64,000 nucleotides of DNA from Macrostomum lignano (GCA_002269645.1 NIVC01001306.1:1-64000); one strand, 5' to 3'. Positions 889-42,607 are shown, numbered from the stretch's first letter. A program made the numbers and translations. Notes: generated from the letters alone by a model not told the origin.

Positions 889-1546
<658 letters not shown>

Positions 1547-2041
1547 CTGCAGCTCGGCCGTCTCCTTGCTGGATTGTTTCTTCAACAGGCTGCCTCCCGC
1601 CTGCTGCTGCTGAAGAGTCTGCTGCTGCTGTTGCTGAACAGTCGTGGACTCGCCGCCCTCCTTGGCAGTTTGCAGCTCCTGCTGCAGCCGCCGGTTGTCC
1701 TCCTGCAGCCGGCTAACAACGTCCATGAGCTCCTGGGTCTCATTGCGCCAGAGCTCTTCAATCTGCTCCAGCTCCCGCTCGAACCGGCTGCGATCGCCCT
1801 GCCGGGACACTTTCTCGGTCTCCAGACGGTCCACAACTCGCTGCAGATCGACCAGCTCTTTGCTCTCGGTCTCGTGCCGAGTAGCCAAGTCCTCCAGCTC
1901 CTCCAGCACGGAGATCACCTTCGGCATGAGGCCGGCGACAGCGTCGACACCGTAGCGATCGATAATTAATTCGAAGTCTTTGCCAATGGCCGAGGCAGCG
2001 TCATAGACGTCGGCCACGGACAGCATGTCCGATGTGGGCAT
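1547..2041 (-). CDS. RILPL: RILP-like protein, coding exon 1 (RH1 domain)
   Basis: MPTSDMLSVADVYDAASAIGKDFELIIDRYGVDAVAGLMPKVISVLEELE matches the RH1 domain of RILP/RILPL/JIP3; GT donor at 1546-1545 after ELQ; the rest of the track ORF is microsatellite read-through. Confidence 0.85.
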
Positions 2042-4017
2042 GTCCGAACCTGTCTTTTTGCTTACTGATTTTTTATTGATTGGCTGGACTGATTGTTTTG
2101 GTTCGATCTTCTAGTAGTTCCAAGCTGCAGTTTGATTCACAATTAAAAAGCAGGGGACTTACACTAAAAACTAATTACCTGTAATACATCATTCATCTAC
2201 CAACTGGCTACCTTAATATAAAAGCTATACTTTTAAGATAGCTGAAGTTAGTAATATAGAAAAAAATGTTAATATTAAATAAAAAACTTATTATTAAAAC
2301 TTATATAACAACTATTAGAAAGCATTGGTTGTTTTGCTTTTTAAATGGGATAAAAATGTCAATTCATTCAAAATTTATTCCTATAATTAGAACAAGGGGT
2401 AGGGGTAGAATAGAATTATACCAAGTCAAGCCTACTATGCTGACCATAGACTAAACTTTTGATGTTTAGTCAGAACTATCAATTCAAAAACAAAAGCAAA
2501 TGAAGAAGCTAAAGAGAAACAAAAGAGCACATAAGCTCTTGAAAAAAGCAGAAGCTAATCTGAAGCAGAAGCAGAAGCAGAACAGCTGCAGGCTGCAGGC
2601 TGAGGGGTGACTTCATTGAAAAGTCATCAGTCAAGGGTGATGGCGATGCTGCGTGATTGACTTTTCAGACCTCTCGACTTGGTGTAACTCTAACCTCCTA
2701 CCCCTTGTTGTATTTATAGGCACAACTTTTGAATGAATTGAAATTTTTACCCTATTTAAAAAGCAAAACAACTGTTGGATTTTTTTCTACTTATAACGCA
2801 AGTTGCATCAGATTTGAATATCACAGTCAGCCTCTGTACTAGTTTTTCCTGCTTTTTCTGGGAGAACCCTTGTAATAGAGTTTTAAATAAGGCTAATTTC
2901 AAAAGAATACAAATACAATTGAATTCTAAAAAATGTTTTCTGTATTGTTGAAAATTTAGCTGCCTTTTTAAATAAGAAAAAATATACTATTGTACTTAAA
3001 GACATAGTTATAGATTATTTATATAAAAGCTATAATTTTATAAGCTTTTTATAAGGTTATAAGCAATGCCATATATTAACTGTCTTTATTATACATGTAT
3101 AAGTGTATAAATAAATTCAATTGTTTCTTATCTACTTTTAAAATAATTTTTACAAAACCTATTTATATATATTATTTTAAATTTAGCACTTGAAAGTTGG
3201 AATTGCAGAAAATGATTGATTAAGGAAGTTGTTAGATATACAGCAATCGAGTAATTTGGAATATTTGGTCCCAGCTCCCATCTCCCGTCTCCCATCTCCC
3301 ATCTACCATCTGCCATCTGCCATCTCCCTATAGTATTTGGAATAGCTATCTGTAAAACTTTCCTTAGATAATTCCAATGTGAGTATATTTTTTCAGTAAT
3401 ATAAAAATACTATACAGCACAGTTGTAGCAATTATGACTCAGACATCAAAGCAAATTATAGCAATAAATGAAATTGATTATTAGGCCTACGCCTACGCCT
3501 GCTACATTAGACTAGAGGATCTGGACTCTGGAGTGGATCTCCATAAATTACATAATTTATTCAATAAATAGAAACAAATTCCTAATCAGTTAAAAATGCT
3601 ACATAAATTAAAAAATATAACTTTTCTCCAGCAAACTTCTGTACTTCTGTACTATTATATATATTACATGCAAAACTGAAGGTTATACCGTTTTATAAAA
3701 TTTTGGTTAATTCGTGGAATGAGACGAACGAATCAGTTTCAAAATGGAGTTTACCTATTTATCGCGTTCATTTAGGAAGTAAAACGAAGCATAAACTTTA
3801 AAGTTTGCAAATATATAGTAACTGTTATTAAATTAATCCCTGATGTCAATACGTTTATATTTATTACAAAATTCAACATTAAGTTGACCTCTGTATAATA
3901 ATTTTTGAGTCATTCGAAACCGTTTGTCTTCGCTTCAGTTAACGAATTTTCATTTCTACTCCAACTCCACTCATTATCATGTACCAATTCTTTTCAGAAT
4001 CCGTCTTGTCAGCACTC

Positions 4018-4725: not shown

Positions 4726-4894
4726 ATGGCGCAACAGGCTGTGAATGTTCACTCAACCTCGCAGACAACAGACAATATGAGCAGGCACGAGATGCTTGGC
4801 TGGATCAACGCGTCAATGCAGACTAATCTGGGCAAAATTGAGGAATTGGCTACTGGCGCAGTTTACTGCCAGTTAATGGATATGCTTTTTCCTG
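4726..4894 (+). CDS. MAPRE: EB1/MAPRE microtubule end-binding protein, exon 1 (CH domain start)
   Basis: [28 protein letters not shown]...[14 protein letters not shown] is the canonical EB1 N-terminus; GTAAGA donor, phase 1. Confidence 0.92.
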
Positions 4895-4968
4895 GTAAGA
4901 AGCCTCTGCTAGATAATTATATTAGTAATAAAAGGTAAAAAAATATTTTGATGTTGTTTCACTTTCAG

Positions 4969-5075
4969 GAACCTTGACATTTAAGAAAGTGAAATTCAAC
5001 ACAAACCTGGAGCACGAATACATCAACAACTTCAAGTTGTTGCAAGCTCTGTTTAAGAAGCACGGAGTTGACAAG
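4969..5075 (+). CDS. MAPRE: EB1/MAPRE exon 2
   Basis: TTTCAG acceptor; [31 protein letters not shown]; GTTAGT donor, phase 0. Confidence 0.92.
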
Positions 5076-5331
5076 GTTAGTGGCCAGTTATTTTGGTTAT
5101 GGTAATGTAGTACTTGACACTGTATTTCATTGCTATTGTTGATGCTGTTGCTAGGATAAATGCAAGTCGAAATATTGAGATGATTAGGGGCGTCGCCAAC
5201 TTGGGGGAGGGCAAGGGGGGGTGCTTTCACAAGGTCGAAATTTCACAACGTCGAAAAACAAATTCTTGGACAAGGTCGATGCTCCCCCCAAAAGCAGCAA
5301 AACAAAAAACAAAAGAAACCAAGACCTGTCC

Positions 5332-8300
5332 TTAGACCTTATAACAAACAGGTTTACGAGGCCGCAAATCATACGAGCTGTGGGGCTGGAGAGTCTTATC
5401 TCCAGAACTCAGCGGGGAGTCACAGTCAGTCACCTCGGGTTCACGCAGCTCCGAGTCAGAGCCAGCCTTTGCACCCTGAATCGATAGCCCAGCCTGATCC
5501 TCGGATCCAGCCGCCTCGGTCAGCCGCCGATCGGCCTCCGCCTCCGGGCGGCAGCTCCATTGGTTTGCGTGCGCCATCCGCCGTCCACCGTCTGGTAGGT
5601 CAGCTGAGGTCACCAGAGCTGTGTTCCGGCCGTGCTGCACGATGAACTTGGCCGGAACTGGAGCCGTGCCAGGCCGAGCCCTCAGCCAGATGGAGTCACC
5701 CACCTGCTCGGTCATCGTCAGCGGATGGCGCAGCCGGCGTCCCCACATGAGAATGTCCGGCGAGCTGGAACGATTCCCGCTAGGCCTGCTGGTGCGAATG
5801 GTTAGGAGCAATTTCTGCAGGAACTGGTCAAATGGGACCACTTTCGTCCACGTCTTCAGCCCGCCTTTGAGACTCCTCACCAACCGCTCAGCCTGCCCGT
5901 TCGATGCCGGATGGTACGGTGGGGTGTGCATCTCCTGGCAGCCGACACTGTTCAGCCACTGCGAGACTCTTTCCGACCTGAACTCAGGCGCATTATCCGA
6001 CACTAGCGTCCGTGGCACTCCATTTCTGGCGAACACCGCTCTCAGCACTCTCAGCACACTGCCCGCAGACCTGTCTGGGACCTGGACAGCTTCTGGCCAA
6101 CCCGAGTATGCATCAGACAGCAACAGTAGCAAGCCCACTCCTGGCACCTCACAGTGGTCCATGTGGACCCGGGACCACGGCTCGCTCTCGGATGGCCAGA
6201 TGTCAATTTTCCGCTGAACCACCGGCCGTCTTTCAGCGCACAGCTGACACCGCTCAACAAACTGACGGACATCGCGATCCAGTCCAGGCCACCAGAACTC
6301 CTTAGACACATGGGCCTTAGTATTTTCCGCGCTCGGGTGCACCTCATCATGCGCGGTCTCCAAAATGCGCCGCCGGAGAATGGTCGGAGGCACCACCCTG
6401 GTACCGTGGATGACCAGCCCGTTCTCCACAGACAACGCTTCCCGACACGCTTTGTACGGCCGCTCCAGCTGAGAGACCTGACCCCACCGGCCTGTCCTGA
6501 TTCTCTGCTGGAGTCTTTGAAGCAGTGAACACCGGGAAGTACTTTCTCTCAGCTCCTCCACGGTAACCAAGCCTCCGTCAGTGATCAACTCAGTCTGGTG
6601 AACCGACTCCGTCTCAGGATCGAGGTTTTCAAAGCTCAGCCTTGATAGAGCGTCAGCATCCTGCATCTTCTTTCCCGGCACATATTCAATCTCGTAATCA
6701 TAAGCCGATAGCCGCAGAGCCCACCGGGTTAGTCTGGCAGAAACAGTCTTTGGAAGATTCTTGCAAGGATTCAGAATAAACTTCAAAGGCTCGTGATCGG
6801 TCTGCAGAATGAATTTCTTCCCTAGCAACATTTTCCGAGCTCGTTCAACCGCCCAAACAATAGCCAGCGCTTCTCTCTCGATGTTTGAATAGTTGGTTTC
6901 TGCCTGTGTGAGCGCCCTGGACATGAACATGACGGGATGTCCAGATTGGACCAGCACCGCGCCCAAGGACTTCTCGCTCGCATCAACTCGAAGACAGACA
7001 GGCGCGGAAACATCAAACGGCTTGATGCACGGGTTTGAGGCCAGACTCCTTTTGACCTCCGAAAATGCCGCCTCAGCCACCGCGTTCCATTCAAAGACCC
7101 GGTCACCGCGGCGAAGCTCCTGAAGAGGCCGACATTTCTCAGAAAAGTTTGGAACCAGCCGTCCATAAAATTGAGCCAGTCCTAGAAATCTCTCCAAATC
7201 TTTCTTGGTCTTCGGCACCTCGACATCCATCACACGTTTCACCATGCCCGGATCGGGTTTTATTCCTTCATCATCAATAATGTGACCAAGAAACTTCAGG
7301 CTGTTGGCTTCCATCACGCACTTCGCCTCGTTGATCTTGACATTTGCGGCCTTTAACTTGTTGAGCACCTGCTCCCTAATTTTCTGCAACTCTGCCCGGC
7401 TTGCAGCACCGATCAGCACATCGTCCTGATATACTATGACACATGGATGGTCTCCCAGGAGCTTTTCCATCACACGTTGAAAAACAGATGGCGACACCTT
7501 AATGCCATACGGCAACCGGTTAAACCTGTAGCAACCAAACGGAGTGTTTATGGTGGTCACCGCCTTCGATTCCTCATCCAGGGGAACCTGATAGTACGCA
7601 TCCGATAGGTCCAACCGACAGAACAGCTTCTTGTTGGCCATTTTCGAAAAGGCTGTCTCAATCGAGGGAGTGAGGAAGGTCTGGTCTTGAACCAACCGAT
7701 TAACAGCCGAATAATCTCCACAAATTCTCACGGATGCCCGATCTGACTTCACCGTCACCACAATTGGACTGCCCCATTCCGACGACATCACCTTCTCAAC
7801 GATTCCAGCACTTTCCATCAGGTCCAGCTCCTTCTTAACCAAGTGCTTCAGCGCTAAGGGCAGTTCTCTGGCTGCCTGGAAAATTGGCCTAGCTCCAGCA
7901 CAAAGACGGATTTCTCCCGTAGCACCAGATATTCCCAACAAGCTCTCATACCTGTTGCTGGCGGCTGACTCATCAGAACTGGCATGGTGCACCGGTGCGA
8001 GGACCAGCAGATTCCGGCCGAGCAGCCCAAACTCCTGTTGGCAGTCGATGACGGGCAGCTCTGCCGCCTTGAAGCGGCCGATGTTGCCAGTGGTCTCCAC
8101 CAGGCATTCCAGAACGCCCATCTGTCTCATAACGTGTCCGTCATACGCCAGCATGCGCGACTTCGCCGACTTCAGCGGGGGCCTTCCGAGCTCATTCCAG
8201 ATCCTTCGTGAGATTAACGAGCAGGAGGCACCGCTGTCCTTCTCCATCAGTACTTCTCTGTGATTGATTTTCACAGTGCAGAACTCGGCAGGCTTTCCTT

Positions 8301-9234
8301 CTCCACAGTAGAATACGGGCTCATCACGATAGGAGTCTTCTGGACTCAGCTGAGTGCCGACTGCTTCAGCTGGGGTAGCGAAGTGGGTCCTGGCACCGCG
8401 GCACACACGGGCAAAGTGGCCAGGCTTTCCACATTGATTGCAGGTGGCTCTCAGGGCTCGGCAGTCAGCGGGCTTCTGGTGCGATCTCAACCCGCAACGC
8501 TGACAGCGCTGGTGTCCGAAGTTCTGCTTCTGCCTCATAACCGAATTAACGTTGACAGAGCCGGAGCTATCCGGATGGCAGTGAGCTTCATCAGCCGTAG
8601 TCAGACCCGCGGTCGACAGCGACCTAGCCTGGTGCACCACCGAATCCACAAGAGTCGAGTGAGCAGCAGTCTGGGACCCAGCTGAAAAGTTGCTGACCAT
8701 CAGCAGCTGCTGAACATATTCTGTGACCTGATCGACCGTCAGTTCTTGAGTAACTTCACGCTCGAGCACCTTGTTCCTGATGTTCGAGTTGGCCAGACCG
8801 GCAATGAGCCGCATCTTGATGAGCGCTTCGGCGGGGTCCGCTCCTTCCTTTTTAAGGCTCTCGAACTCGCATACGACGGCTTGCTCCCTGAGACGAGCGG
8901 CATAGCTGGTGACGGTTTCGCCTTCGGCCTGGCGCATAGACATGAAGGCTGTCCTCTCAGCGATCTGCAGTTTCTTCTTGGGCTCCACAAACGCCAGTAG
9001 GCATTGCTTGATTTCAGACCATTTCATCTCAGACGGGGTTTTTGGAGCAACCAGCTGCTTGACTTTTATGAGCTCAGCGACCCCGAGGCAGCCCATGAAA
9101 GCGTCGGTCAGCGCTCGTCTCTCGTCGGTATCTTCGACTCCTTTGGATCTGGCCTGGGCGTCAAATACTTCAACCCAGGCGCGAAGCTCATCTATGTTGC
9201 TCAACGGCAGCGTCTCTCTCAATTTGATGCTCAT
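5332..9234 (-). CDS. Gag-Pol polyprotein, 1300 aa, uninterrupted
   Basis: Two CCHC knuckles (CQRCGLRSHQKPADC, CNQCGKPGHFARVC), protease DSG, RT YQDD, RNase H VDAS, integrase HHCC and D,D,E, in gypsy order. Confidence 0.97.
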   Translation of the reverse strand: MSIKLRETLPLSNIDELRAWVEVFDAQARSKGVEDTDERRALTDAFMGCLGVAELIKVKQLVAPKTPSEMKWSEIKQCLLAFVEPKKKLQIAERTAFMSMRQAEGETVTSYAARLREQAVVCEFESLKKEGADPAEALIKMRLIAGLANSNIRNKVLEREVTQELTVDQVTEYVQQLLMVSNFSAGSQTAAHSTLVDSVVHQARSLSTAGLTTADEAHCHPDSSGSVNVNSVMRQKQNFGHQRCQRCGLRSHQKPADCRALRATCNQCGKPGHFARVCRGARTHFATPAEAVGTQLSPEDSYRDEPVFYCGEGKPAEFCTVKINHREVLMEKDSGASCSLISRRIWNELGRPPLKSAKSRMLAYDGHVMRQMGVLECLVETTGNIGRFKAAELPVIDCQQEFGLLGRNLLVLAPVHHASSDESAASNRYESLLGISGATGEIRLCAGARPIFQAARELPLALKHLVKKELDLMESAGIVEKVMSSEWGSPIVVTVKSDRASVRICGDYSAVNRLVQDQTFLTPSIETAFSKMANKKLFCRLDLSDAYYQVPLDEESKAVTTINTPFGCYRFNRLPYGIKVSPSVFQRVMEKLLGDHPCVIVYQDDVLIGAASRAELQKIREQVLNKLKAANVKINEAKCVMEANSLKFLGHIIDDEGIKPDPGMVKRVMDVEVPKTKKDLERFLGLAQFYGRLVPNFSEKCRPLQELRRGDRVFEWNAVAEAAFSEVKRSLASNPCIKPFDVSAPVCLRVDASEKSLGAVLVQSGHPVMFMSRALTQAETNYSNIEREALAIVWAVERARKMLLGKKFILQTDHEPLKFILNPCKNLPKTVSARLTRWALRLSAYDYEIEYVPGKKMQDADALSRLSFENLDPETESVHQTELITDGGLVTVEELRESTSRCSLLQRLQQRIRTGRWGQVSQLERPYKACREALSVENGLVIHGTRVVPPTILRRRILETAHDEVHPSAENTKAHVSKEFWWPGLDRDVRQFVERCQLCAERRPVVQRKIDIWPSESEPWSRVHMDHCEVPGVGLLLLLSDAYSGWPEAVQVPDRSAGSVLRVLRAVFARNGVPRTLVSDNAPEFRSERVSQWLNSVGCQEMHTPPYHPASNGQAERLVRSLKGGLKTWTKVVPFDQFLQKLLLTIRTSRPSGNRSSSPDILMWGRRLRHPLTMTEQVGDSIWLRARPGTAPVPAKFIVQHGRNTALVTSADLPDGGRRMAHANQWSCRPEAEADRRLTEAAGSEDQAGLSIQGAKAGSDSELREPEVTDCDSPLSSGDKTLQPHSSYDLRPRKPVCYKV

Positions 9235-9235
9235 G

Positions 9236-9253
9236 ATCCTGCTTGCGACGCCA
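9236..9253 (-). promoter_or_regulatory. Primer-binding site, tRNA-Ser-like
   Basis: TGGCGTCGCAAGCAGGAT, 3 nt after the LTR's terminal CA; the complement ends in CCA and resembles tRNA-Ser 3' ends. Confidence 0.8.
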
Positions 9254-9256
9254 AAA

Positions 9257-9544
9257 TGTTAGTCTAGGAAAACTGAGTCAAGTCATGTTTGCAAGCGAAG
9301 GAGAATACAATTGAAAGATCTCTACCGAAGTGACGAAAGTATTTATTTGACTACATAACACGAAACCACGTACATCAGTAGACAAACGCCATCCGATTGG
9401 CTGGGGGTTAAAACCATGCACACTGGCAAGCACAAATGTACACAGGTAGGGGTAAAACGATAGCGCGCAAGAATGATCAGTCACGGGAGGGAGAGAGAGA
9501 GAGACAAGTGAAACAACATGAAAAACCAAAGTACAACCCCAACA
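9257..9544 (-). repeat. LTR (288 bp), the only copy
   Basis: TG...CA termini with TGTT/AACA inverted ends; AATAAA on the - strand at 9342-9347; abuts the PBS. Confidence 0.85.
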
Positions 9545-10447
9545 GTCGAAATTTTACAAGGTCGAAAACTCTAGCAGAAGACTTCATAAGGTCGAAATTT
9601 CACAAGATCGAAATTTCACAACATCGAAAACTCGAAAAGCAGCCACTTTCATAAGGTCGAAATTTCACAACGTAGAAAACTCAAATGGCAGCCACTTTCA
9701 CAAGGTCGAAATTTCACAAGATCGAAATTTCACAACACCGAAAACTCTAGCAAGAGATTTCATAAAGTCGAAATTTCAAAAGGTCGAAATTTCATAACAT
9801 CGAAAACTCAAATAGTATCCACTTTCACAAGGTCGAAACTTCATAAGATCGAAATTTCACAAGGTCGAAAATTTAATATAACAAGAACTATACAGTAGTT
9901 TTCTACGTTGTGAAATTTCGACCTTGTGAAATTTCGACCTTATGAAGTCCCTTCCTAAAGTTTTCGATGTGAAATTTCGACCTTGTGAAGTTTCGACCTT
10001 GTGAAAGGGGCTGCTATTTGAGTTTTCGATGTTCTGAAATTTCGACCTTGTGAAACTTCGACTTTATGAAGTCTCTTGCTAAAGTTTTCGATGTTGTGAA
10101 ATTTCGACCTTGTGAAATTTCGACCTTATGAAAGTGGCTGCTTTTCGAGTTTTCGATGTTGTGAAATTTCGATCTTGTGAAATTTCGACCTTGTGAAAGT
10201 GGCTGCTTTTCGAGTTTTCGATGTTATGAAATTTCGACCTTGTGAAATTTCGACCTTATGAAGGAGGGTGCTTTCGACGTTGAGAAATTTCGAGTTTGTG
10301 AAACCCCCCCCCCCAAGGGGGACACAGAAGTAAAAGCTGTGGGGGGGAGATATGCCAATGCGTTGTCCTTCGCCCCACCTTGTGACCCGTTATCAAAATC
10401 AAGAATCAAGAACAGAGCGTCAAAATGAGTGACTGCCGATCACAGAA

Positions 10448-10782
10448 ATGAGTTCTGTGGCTCTAAAAATGAGCGTCTGTGGCGCTAAAATGAGTGTCTG
10501 TGGCGCTAAAATGAGTGTCTGTGGCGCTAAAATGAGTGCATGTGGCGCTAAAATGAGTGTCTGTGGCGCTAAAATGAGTGTCTTTGGCGCTAAAATGAGT
10601 ATCTGTGGCGCTAAAATGAGTGTATGTGACGCTAAAATGAGTGTCTGTGGCGCTAAAATGAGTGTCTTTGGCGCTAAAATGAGTATCTGTGGCGCTAAAA
10701 TGAGTGTATGTGACGCTAAAATGAGTGTCTGTGGCGCTAAAATGAGTGTCTTTGGCGCTAAAATGAGTGCATGTGGCGCCAA
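10448..10782. repeat. 21-bp minisatellite GTGGCGCTAAAATGAGTGTCT, ~16 copies
   Basis: Tandem copies; 7-aa periodic spurious ORFs. Confidence 0.95.
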
Positions 10783-11135
10783 AAATCAGTACTAACAACA
10801 CTGATTCCCAAAATATAGGAACTAGGAACTTTTCGTTTAAGATTCTTGACTTTTTTCTCCCCCACCATAAACTCTATAAACTCCATAAACCATGGTGACA
10901 CTATTTTAAATTGGTCCGACCAGTTGACTACAATCGCCACGGTCCGGAGCCTTGCGTTGGGTTCAATTTCAGCGCTTAAGTTGACATTATTTTTTGCAGT
11001 TACTAAAATACGATTTAGAAATGTCTTTCAAGCATTCTTCAAGCATCCAAATTTATTCTGTATGACTTGGCGTTTAGCTCCACCGCACCACACTGGAGTG
11101 GCTTGCCGCCTCACCCTCCACTTCAACCAAAACAG

Positions 11136-11753
11136 GAGGTGCCAATCGAACGCCTGGTGAAGGCCCGCTTCCAGGACAACTTCGAGTTCGCCCAGTGGTT
11201 CAAGCGCCTATTCGACGCCAACTATTCCGGCGAGCCGTACGACGCCCTGGCCGCCCGATCCGGCGAGGCCATCGCCGGCAGCGGCAAAGCTGGCGCCGGC
11301 CGGCGGACGTCAGGGGCGGCGACGACGATGGCGGCACCGGCGCAGCCGCGAAGGCAGCCGGCGCCGGAGAGACAGCGGCCGGCGCAGCCGCCTCAAAGAC
11401 CGCAGCAGCAGCCGCAGCAGCAGCCTCAACAGCAACCGCAGCCGACAGCAGCGGACCCAGCGGCCACCTACCGCGCTCCGGCAGGCGGCAGCGCCACGGC
11501 CGAACAGATGCGCAATCGCGTCGCCGCATTGTCCGCCCGCCGCGTGCAAGACCAGCACACCAAGGACGGCTTAGTGATGGAGCGCGATTTTTATTACGGC
11601 AAACTGCGCCAAGTAGAAATCATCTGCCAGACGGCGGAGCAGCCGAACGATCAGATCCGGCGCATCCTGGACATTCTGTACCAGACCGAGGACGGCTTCG
11701 CGCAGCCGCAGGAGGGTTCGCCGCCGTACACCGAAGAGCCCGAGGAGTATTGA
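11136..11753 (+). CDS. MAPRE: EB1/MAPRE exon 3 (CH end, linker, EBH domain, acidic EEY tail)
   Basis: ACAG acceptor; [48 protein letters not shown]-terminal EEY; total CDS 894 nt (297 aa). Confidence 0.93.
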
Positions 11754-16905: not shown

Positions 16906-17018
16906 AACTCACCCTATTTAATACAAAGGCAATGCATGTCTATTAGTTCAAATCCCAGCTAATCTACTGATAGTAGCATAATAATTTTCCCGCTAAAAAT
17001 AAATAAACAGTCGCTCAC

Positions 17019-17736
17019 TGTGCTGCGCCAGGTACTGCTGGTGCTGCTGGTGAAGGTGCTGATGCTGGTGCTGGGCCGAATGCCCAAAACCGCCGCCAAC
17101 GCCGCCACTGCCGCCGCCTCCGGCCCCGCCGACGCCAGCAACGGCATCGGCGACCTCGTCGTCCTCGTCTGGCCCGTCAGAATCGTCGCCGGCTTCGTCG
17201 TAGCTGCCGCCGTCGTCGTCGGAGTCGACGGGATTGGGCATCGGGTTGGACAGCTGGGCCGCTGACGCTGGGGTGCCGAAGCCAGCTTGCTGCTGATGAA
17301 ATGGCGGCAACTGCTGCTGATGGAGCTGATGATGGGGATACAGGCCTAGCAGAGGCTTAGTGTCGTGATGCTGCTGCTGCTGCTGGCTGGCGACCGCCTC
17401 CTCCTTGACTACTCCAGTTGGACCAGACGATGACTGGAGCTGCTGCTGCTGCTGGTGCGCCGCCGAGGACTTGCCAGTCGGAGCCGATGCTGCCGCAGCT
17501 GCAGCTGCCGCCGCGGCCGCCTGACTACTAGCGAGATTAGCCGGCCAGAAGCGGACATTGCTTGGCCGATTTTGTTGAGCTTTTTTCTTCTTCTGGCTAC
17601 TCTCGGGCGATGAGGCGTCCAGCATCGGTTGGAGGATGCGCCGGCGAGCGTTAATGAACCAGTTGTTCACCTGCAGCAGGGTCAGGTTGGTCTGGCCCGC
17701 CAGCTGCCGCTTCTCGTCCTCGGTCGGGTACGGATG
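17019..17736 (-). CDS. PKNOX: PKNOX/Prep exon 4 (homeodomain helices 2-3 and C-terminal region)
   Basis: [39 protein letters not shown]...[10 protein letters not shown] matches the PKNOX (Prep) TALE class; CAG acceptor at 17737-17739; unspliced, the frame stops at 16993. Confidence 0.93.
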
Positions 17737-17874
17737 CTGCAGATGAAGATCGGGGATTAGTGCTCACTGATTGGAGAAATATTTTTGTTTTTTTCTTTCT
17801 TAGCAATTTTGATAACGGGCGTTGAGCTCAGTTAAAATCGCATTACAAAATCTCAGTACTTGCGGGTAGTCTTA

Positions 17875-31695: not shown

Positions 31696-31720
31696 CTTCA
31701 TTAAAAGCGAACACACGCAC

Positions 31721-32166
31721 CGTGCTGCAGAAAGTCGGCTTGCTGATAGCGGCACCGCACGGTATTAATATACCTCGAGCAGAAGTCGCGGCACAATTCA
31801 TTGACCTTCTCCAATTCAATAATGTGAATGCCGAGCACCTGGACAGCTTCGATCATCAGTTGGTCCAAATCCGGGTTGGAGCCGCAGTCTAAACTGCCTC
31901 TGCCGCCGCCGCTGTCGCTGCCAGTTGCAGAGTCTCGCTGTTGCTGCTGCTGCTGCTGCTGCTGGTGCTGCTGCAGAAACGCCTGAACATCGGCGTCAAG
32001 CGACTCCTTGCCAGATGTCTGCGTGTCCAACTGAGCCGTGGACGCCTCGCATCGTTCCAGCACGCTGGCCAGCAGGGGAAACAGAGGGTGCGCGTAGATG
32101 CACTTCTTCTCGCTTTCTTGCTGCGGATGGGCGGCGGCCAGCTCCACGGAGGTCAGAGTTGGGGCG
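31721..32166 (-). CDS. PKNOX: PKNOX/Prep exon 2 (MEINOX/HM1-HM2 PBX-interaction domain)
   Basis: EKKCIYAHPLFPLLASVLERCE and LDQLMIEAVQVLGIHIIELEKVNELCRDFCSRYI; phase 2 in, phase 1 out. Confidence 0.92.
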
Positions 32167-32239
32167 CTGAGAATGCACGGGCGAGCGGCGAGATGTACCG
32201 ATAAATTAAATTCGACACAAATCAGAGAACAGAGGCTTG

Positions 32240-32700
32240 TCACTCTCCGATCTCTCTAGCCGCTAAGTCACTCTCCGATCTCTCTCTAGCCGCTAAGTCA
32301 CTCTCCGATCTATTTAACCGCTAAGTCACTCTCCGATCTCTCTAGCCGCTAAGTCACTCTCCGATCTATTTAACCGCTAAGTCACTCTCCGATCTCTCTA
32401 GCCGCTAAATCACTCTCCGATCTCTCTAGCCGCTAAGTCACTCTCCGATCTCTCTAGCCGCTAAGTCACTCTCCGATCTCTCTAGCCGCTAAGTCACTCT
32501 CCGATCTCTCTCTAGCCGCTAAGTCACTCTCCGATCTATTTAACCGCTAAGTCACTCTCCGATCTCTCTAGCCGCTAAGTCACTCTCCGATCTATTTAAC
32601 CGCTAAGTCACTCTCCGATCTCTCTAGCCGCTAAATCACTCTCCGATCTCTCTAGCCACTAAGTCACTCTCCGATCTCTCTAACCGCTAAGTCACTCTCA
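32240..32700. repeat. 28-bp minisatellite TCTCTAGCCGCTAAGTCACTCTCCGATC
   Basis: ~16 tandem copies. Confidence 0.94.
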
Positions 32701-41706: not shown

Positions 41707-42175
41707 GGCGACTGGGCAGAACATCAAAGCCGACAACACGGCTAGATGGTGAGACTTCCAAGGTCTCGAAGGAACTGACACGATGGGAATCTGTTTCGAA
41801 AGATCGATATCTGCTTTGCAAGCAGACACTTGGTATCCACATACCAACAAACAACATCACATCGTTTTTGAAGAACGAGTTAATTGCTACTTGCTGCCCT
41901 GGTCTCTTTCTAGTAAATATTTGATTTTCTTATAGTTTAAAAGGAATCCGGACCAATTATTTTACTAATACTAATATTTACAATGATTTACTAATAGCAG
42001 CTTTTAAATAGCAAATCTTAGGCGCATGTTTAATAAAGCCTAAATCAGGATCTAAATAGTTTCTAGTTCTAGGATCTTAAATCCTAATAGTTATACTATT
42101 GGATCTCTCAATATTTCTTCCAACATTAATAACAACTGTCTACGGCCCCGACATCCCGCTAAATTTCATAAAACC

Positions 42176-42607
42176 TAAACTTTACAAGACCTAAACTTCA
42201 CAAGACCTAAACTTCACAAGACCTAAACTTCACAAGACCTAAACTTCACAAGACCTAAACTTCACAAGACCTAAACTTCACAAGACCTAAACTTCACAAG
42301 ACCTAAACTTCACAAGACCTAAACTTCACAAGACCTAAACTTCACAAGACCTAAACTTCACAAGACCTAAACTTCACAAGACCTAAACTTCACAAGACCT
42401 AAACTTCACAAGACCTAAACTTCACAAGACCTAAACTTCACAAGACCTAAACTTCACAAGACCTAAACTTCACAAGACCTAAACTTCACAAGACCTAAAC
42501 TTCACAAGACCTAAACTTCACAAGACCTAAACTTCACAAGACCTAAACTTCACAAGACCTAAACTTCACAAGACCTAAACTTCAGAAGACCTAAACTTCA
42601 GAAGACT
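42176..42607. repeat. Near-perfect 16-bp minisatellite AGACCTAAACTTCACA
   Basis: ~26 tandem copies. Confidence 0.96.

Follow-up and report, generated by a model that had tools for sequence, protein, structure and literature searches.

A Ty3/gypsy copy with a single long terminal repeat and a 5-bp flanking duplication in Macrostomum lignano

A 64,000-nucleotide stretch of the flatworm Macrostomum lignano genome (GCA_002269645.1 NIVC01001306.1:1-64000, hereafter the window) contains a Ty3/gypsy retrotransposon copy on the minus strand (5280-9544, 4,265 bp) which has only one long terminal repeat (LTR) and is bounded on both sides by the 5-mer GTCGA. In its workings the element is a Ty3/gypsy retrotransposon, of which this copy is a defective one. 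The feature is real, and more than one route could account for it. Since both ends finish in CA and adjoin a 5-bp duplication as made by gypsy integrases, joining of a one-LTR DNA by integrase is the favored class of explanation. We consider it an even bet that the defect arose before integration, in a linear DNA which integrase then joined to the chromosome, counting together the two routes described below. The probabilities given to explanations in this work are judgements and were not computed.

A first-pass annotation of the window had described one LTR, a primer-binding site (PBS), an intact gag-pol, CA ends and GTCGA on both sides, and this anatomy proved correct to the base. The sole LTR (9257-9544, minus strand, 288 bp, TG...CA) carries a CCAAT at its position 145 and, further along at 198, an AATAAA. 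A 3-nt spacer, TTT (9254-9256, minus strand), separates the CA of U5 from an 18-nt PBS beginning with TGG (9236-9253, minus strand), which may be tRNA-Ser-like, judging from general features of tRNAs. A single unbroken open reading frame of 1,300 amino acids (5332-9234, minus strand) encodes gag-pol with two zinc knuckles, protease (PR), reverse transcriptase (RT), RNase H (RH), an H2C2 domain and integrase (IN; HHCC and DD35E), and the expected catalytic residues were all found. Pfam matches were above cut-off for RT, RNase H, H2C2 and integrase and below cut-off for protease and zinc knuckle. The Pfam order PR-RT-RH-IN with a gypsy-type RT, and the Gag-Pol of Ty3-G as top PDB match to the element protein (E 6e-75), are those of Ty3/gypsy elements. 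So are the PBS behind the 5' LTR, the polypurine tract (PPT) closing the internal region and CA ends adjoining a duplication in the 4-6-bp range, although periodicity of the surrounding array weakens this last trait. The internal region ends 3' in T4-G6-AG-CA and directly abuts the host 5-mer. Its T-tract and PPT (T4, G6, AG) occupy 5282-5293 (minus strand), and the terminal CA (5280-5281, minus strand) stands where a 3' LTR would begin. This CA may be a spacer between PPT and LTR, or the end of U5 may have been the template for this pair of bases.

A complete copy has two LTRs, and this one has a single LTR in the window. Searches of the 64-kb window by blastn (word 7, E<=10) with the LTR and the whole element as queries found no second LTR or remnant of one; besides the self-match there were short matches only (<=27 nt), mainly to simple repeats. 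We thus reject the reading that a second LTR lies concealed or out of place in the window. No AATAAA or ATTAAA was found on the element strand within 455 bp after pol. With neither a downstream LTR nor a poly(A) signal, this copy should be a dead end.

The insertion interrupts a host foldback-like array of 16-bp units arranged in blocks. The outer part of its left arm lies at 5185-5279, the remainder of that arm at 9545-9875, and the inverted right arm at 9897-10320 served as a stand-in for the empty site. The two copies of the duplication are at 5275-5279 and 9545-9549 (both plus strand), and the size of 5 bp is also that of the Ty3 duplication (10.1101/2021.07.27.453949). The earlier caveat that GTCGA recurs in the array was justified: of 55 positions in the array's left flank, 3 are ends of the 5-mer, as are 8 of 326 in the right part, so that a chance match costs only 0.03-0.05. 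In the inverted arm, the counterpart of the insertion block keeps the same register through the site. Seven blocks were counted in each arm, with 2,2,3,2,3,3,3 units per block in the interrupted arm and 2,3,3,3,3,3,3 in the other. A large flanking deletion is unlikely, as both arms keep their seven blocks in register. The insertion block has two units versus three in its counterpart of the inverted arm, so one 16-bp unit may have been lost there; one uninterrupted block of the interrupted arm likewise has two units without any insertion. The foldback arms have G-rich outer ends and a centre of ~20 bp between them; the window has a further array of 16-bp units (42159-42606), with ~67% likeness to that of the foldback.

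With the linear one-LTR DNA that we prefer as the source, this copy would be a single defective offspring of a Mag-like gypsy family that is active and has two LTRs (or is tandem). In the steps that we infer, reverse transcription would produce a linear DNA whose 5' LTR is normal and whose right end lies at the PPT/U3 border, with a CA near its tip. The element integrase would join both CA ends in concert, which would leave the 5-bp duplication.

One clue to how such a DNA could form is the start of the LTR itself. The true U5 end consists of CA, three nucleotides and then the TGG of the PBS, and the PPT-side CA followed by the LTR start would repeat this spacing. LTR positions 4-13 (9532-9541, minus strand) could form 9 of 10 pairs with the last ten bases of the primer (7 Watson-Crick and 2 G.U), the second-best 10-nt primer match in the element behind the true PBS. 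Among the seven CA-N3-TGG sites other than the PBS (six internal and this one) it pairs best, with 9/10 versus 4-7/10 for the rest, and shuffling gave p values of 0.002-0.047 depending on the null. This PBS-like spacing suggests a reverse-transcription error resulting in a linear one-LTR cDNA that was inserted normally by integrase. In such a primer misplacement, the tRNA primer would anneal to the PBS-like start of the 3' U3, or jump there after ~5 nt, and the minus strand would begin 3 nt past a CA, matching the true U5 end. Ordinary plus-strand strong-stop DNA would transfer to its PBS and provide the 5' LTR, while the right end would be the PPT-CA plus 3 nt, from which integrase would trim its usual 3 nt. 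We put this route forward tentatively, as a possible one.

Another possibility within the same class, which we regard as somewhat unlikely, is nick-directed processing of an open-circular or linear intermediate. The plus strand would be nicked at the PPT/U3 border, integrase would cut U3 as it normally does, across from the nick, and filling-in would bring the PPT end to CA. A nicked one-LTR circular intermediate has been modelled (bioRxiv 10.1101/2022.09.25.509424), and this route is near in spirit to the proposal of the first-pass annotation discussed below.

The nearest named homologues of the element are Macrostomum lignano proteins and K02A2.6-like proteins. Its protein cluster has ten members, and the nine siblings match the frame in the window at 97.9-99.6% protein identity in their main alignments, which indicates a young and multi-copy family; a sister family is found at ~73% identity. 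We call the element Mag-like on the basis of homologue names and of Mag traits, among which are presumably the two zinc knuckles found here. The proteins PAA47395, PAA66364, PAA71974 and PAA81576 extend as far as the pol end. One gene model from another source, P0008, covers two copies of the element on one strand, which suggests a tandem or adjacent pair elsewhere in the genome. P0008 and the independent model P0054 skip the same stretch (the equivalent of window position 7951 is followed directly by that of 6498), so that RT and RNase H are missing between gag-protease and integrase. This may reflect a splice form, predicted or real, or a common deletion. In tblastn comparisons of 17 sibling and near-relative proteins with the window, no model ran through the PPT or into the LTR. 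An antisense frame at 5280-5642 gave no phmmer matches at E<=0.001 among 1.84 billion representatives. The supplementary expression table of PMC12801592 has no entry for Mlig032248, Mlig032217 or the 288-bp LTR, and the sequence archive of that study covers six heat-shock families only.

A scan of bacterial and archaeal contigs gave two loci from 13 candidates, with 30% and 27% identity. The first of these (L001:2539-6937) is a complete gypsy element with two 98%-identical LTRs and, like the copy in the window, a 5-bp duplication. The 323-kb record that holds it bears the title of a Stappiaceae bacterial MAG and is probably eukaryotic host DNA within that assembly. The second locus has no repeat of at least 40 nt. 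Many relatives with 40-60% identity are on contigs of ~4.0-4.4 kb, the size of one LTR plus the internal region; repeat collapse in assembly is a likely reason, and these contigs could possibly be circles.

Several observations weigh against a linear DNA that lost its 3' LTR before integration. The structure is seen at a single locus, and a 3-bp microhomology, to which the duplication contributes its first base, fits later deletion of the LTR. The PPT end is a poor attachment (att) site, sharing 3 of its last 6 bases with U5 compared to 5 of 6 for U3. Both nick-directed processing and primer misplacement in its de novo priming form need a CA before the 3' LTR in the family, and none of four comparison elements has one: the two bases at this position are AA in Mlig-id115 (Mag), GA in L001, and GT and AT in two CsRN1 consensuses. 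Boundaries in this comparison were judged by eye, with the 5' end of id55 unseen; a CA before the 3' LTR is not general across elements, and the four compared belong to other families. The PBS likeness was spotted post hoc, and the p value of 0.047 belongs to the null that kept local composition and left the LTR's first five bases unshuffled. The PBS-like stretch ranks 9th of 101 TGG sites over 12 nt and 4th of 101 over 18 nt, and its duplex energy is 10th of 101, at -13.0 kcal/mol, the true PBS reaching -36.0 kcal/mol. Among the papers listed by a literature search, none was a direct precedent for priming at a cryptic PBS.

The first-pass annotation had read the copy as the signature of 1-LTR-circle integration, in which integrase would cut a covalently closed 1-LTR circle on both strands at CA/TG and the product would integrate. 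Its argument for integrase stands, as the CA-3' ends and the 5-bp duplication favor integrase joining of one-LTR DNA, but the circle is not singled out: the same PPT/U3 junction should also occur within every ordinary linear cDNA with two LTRs, as well as in nicked intermediates, and a circle cannot be told from the product. The circle route, too, needs two-LTR siblings with a CA between PPT and 3' LTR. Cutting of a closed circle would yield exactly the observed product, and 1-LTR circles are reported as the main circular form of gypsy-type elements in Drosophila (10.1101/2022.09.25.509424; PMC12951756). Cleavage of 2-LTR junctions by retroviral integrases, to which the annotation also appealed, is borne out in vitro for the foamy-virus enzyme (PMC1180852). 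However, the foamy-virus substrate described there is a 20-nt bipartite palindrome of two att sites, its cleavage leaves 5' overhangs, and mutated or foreign junctions were uncut. The junction considered here lacks such an extended palindrome, having one att site and 4 bp, and its cut would be blunt. The predicted CATG is present, but it is not special within the element, where 14 of the 16 internal CATG sites are palindromes as long as the junction and the other two are longer; we therefore rejected a special palindrome at the circle junction. According to a review (PMC11054761), the retroviral integration precursor is linear DNA rather than a circle junction, and the circle-precursor model was abandoned for retroviruses. 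In Drosophila, nomad combines abundant 1-LTR circles with rare integration (PMC12951756). Other papers bear less directly on the question: that on ZAM integrase concerns target palindromes and not circle junctions, a letter on a 3'-PPT mutant of human immunodeficiency virus (HIV) argues for replication from unintegrated 1-LTR circles and not for their integration, and the accessible part of the XMRV paper has no one-LTR case. Overall, we find integration from a closed circle quite improbable.

Later loss of the 3' LTR from a two-LTR insertion, by microhomology-mediated repair or slippage between CA-T borders, is an unlikely but serious contender. If the family has CA before its 3' LTR, the borders would share CA and also T, with which the duplication begins. 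There is a short inverted repeat at the LTR ends (5/6), the long inverted array around the element could favor rearrangement, and with 1,928 LTR-bearing copies reported for the M. lignano genome (PMC12801592) rare events are expected somewhere. On the other hand, a 3-mer is common to 647 of 29,651 breakpoint pairs in the surrounding zone, so the exact pair would be met about once in 650 such deletions; the element is also young and otherwise undamaged, and deletion leaves the PBS-like spacing unexplained. There is a slim chance that the 3' LTR was lost by an assembly or polishing artefact, as the structure is known from assembled sequence, and assembly of this genome is reported to be difficult and to leave some errors (PMC5730564). 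The public assembly with the identical protein cluster was nevertheless made from PacBio reads with Canu (PMC5730564), relative to which a 288-bp repeat is short. Collapse would normally result in a solo LTR and not in the base-exact loss of one LTR, and there is no N in the window. Could the family normally be mobile as a single-LTR element? The two-copy model P0008 is compatible with tandem or circular templates, which may exist and could supply full RNA. Standard reverse transcription needs an RNA with 3' U3-R, which a lone copy without a poly(A) signal downstream cannot give, and L001, the sole relative with a complete element readable, has two LTRs. We consider this highly unlikely, noting that the 78 published Mag families of M. 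lignano were retained only if their consensus had predicted LTRs (PMC12801592) and thus provide no test of single-LTR mobility here. Equally faint is the prospect that integrase joined one end and host repair the other, or that insertion was integrase-independent via PPT homology. Both pathways are documented (PMC5041404; Tf1, PMC11042837), and within a GTCGA-rich array the duplication is weak evidence. Yet the flanks share at most one base with the expected PPT or LTR sequence at either junction, and a 5-bp repeat or a stop at the LTR-border CA is rare in such events; aberrant host-mediated ends of HIV usually have long duplications or deletions (PMC5041404).

The insertion lies in an intron of an EB1-like gene (4729-11753, plus strand), to which the gypsy copy is antisense. 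The gene has a CH-domain exon at 4729-4893 and an EB1 C-terminal motif within 11019-11750. The foldback and the gypsy copy share a single intron of ~6 kb with an array of 21-bp units at 10446-10784. Elsewhere in the window, a TALE/Meis-type homeobox gene has exons (16996-17763 and 31704-32255, minus strand) scattered across 15 kb or more, and there is an RILP-homology-1 domain gene (1403-2107, minus strand). The window is very dense in unrelated minisatellites, with 69 TRF rows.

A single copy alone is a curiosity with retroviral precedent. A broader claim, which we consider decidedly unlikely, is that the family repeatedly makes integration-competent one-LTR DNAs ending at the PPT/U3 border, either through a second PBS at the U3 start or through nicked or closed 1-LTR circles reopened by integrase. 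If true, one-LTR copies with a target-site duplication would be a regular product, and 1-LTR intermediates would be no dead end in an animal germ line. The usual view is that one-LTR genome fragments result from later deletion and that 1-LTR circles are a sink away from chromosomes; a recurrent integrase-made class ending at the PPT would revise both views. Such a class would be invisible to LTR finders requiring two repeats, and it could be tested in a tractable animal with a young multi-copy family.

Among known systems, the Mag clade of Ty3/gypsy (Ty3/Mdg4) elements of M. lignano, as described in PMC12801592, shares with this copy a single gag-pol frame, the PR-RT-RH-IN order, a TG...CA LTR, a tRNA PBS, a PPT and a 5-bp duplication. 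It differs in that this copy is without a 3' LTR, and none of the published family ids was matched. Foamy-virus cleavage of the two-LTR junction (PMC1180852) resembles the proposed internal two-strand cut beside CA, although its substrate is a long palindrome with two att sites and its cut ends overhang, whereas a single att site and 4 bp are available here. The 1-LTR extrachromosomal circular DNA and nicked circular intermediate of HMS-Beagle and nomad (10.1101/2022.09.25.509424; PMC12951756) likewise combine one LTR with the full internal region; there, however, circles are end products and linear two-LTR DNA is the integration precursor. Integrase-independent insertions of Tf1 (PMC11042837) also have junctions at PPT or PBS borders but need target homology to PPT or PBS and are mostly tandems, neither of which is seen here, with at most one base shared at the junctions. 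In the literature searched, most subscription journals being outside its coverage, we found no gypsy insert with a duplication and an end placed exactly on the border of PPT and LTR. There is also a likeness to defective HTLV-1 proviruses (PMC6950816), which have one LTR, an internal end and a correct short repeat, the combination also found in the flatworm copy. Their one-LTR inserts were read as use of internal sequence by integrase before integration, and one-LTR inserts beside a proper duplication are therefore not undescribed. The HTLV-1 proviruses lack the 5' LTR, have a 6-bp repeat and end inside pol or env, whereas the flatworm copy lacks the 3' LTR and ends exactly at the PPT/LTR border.

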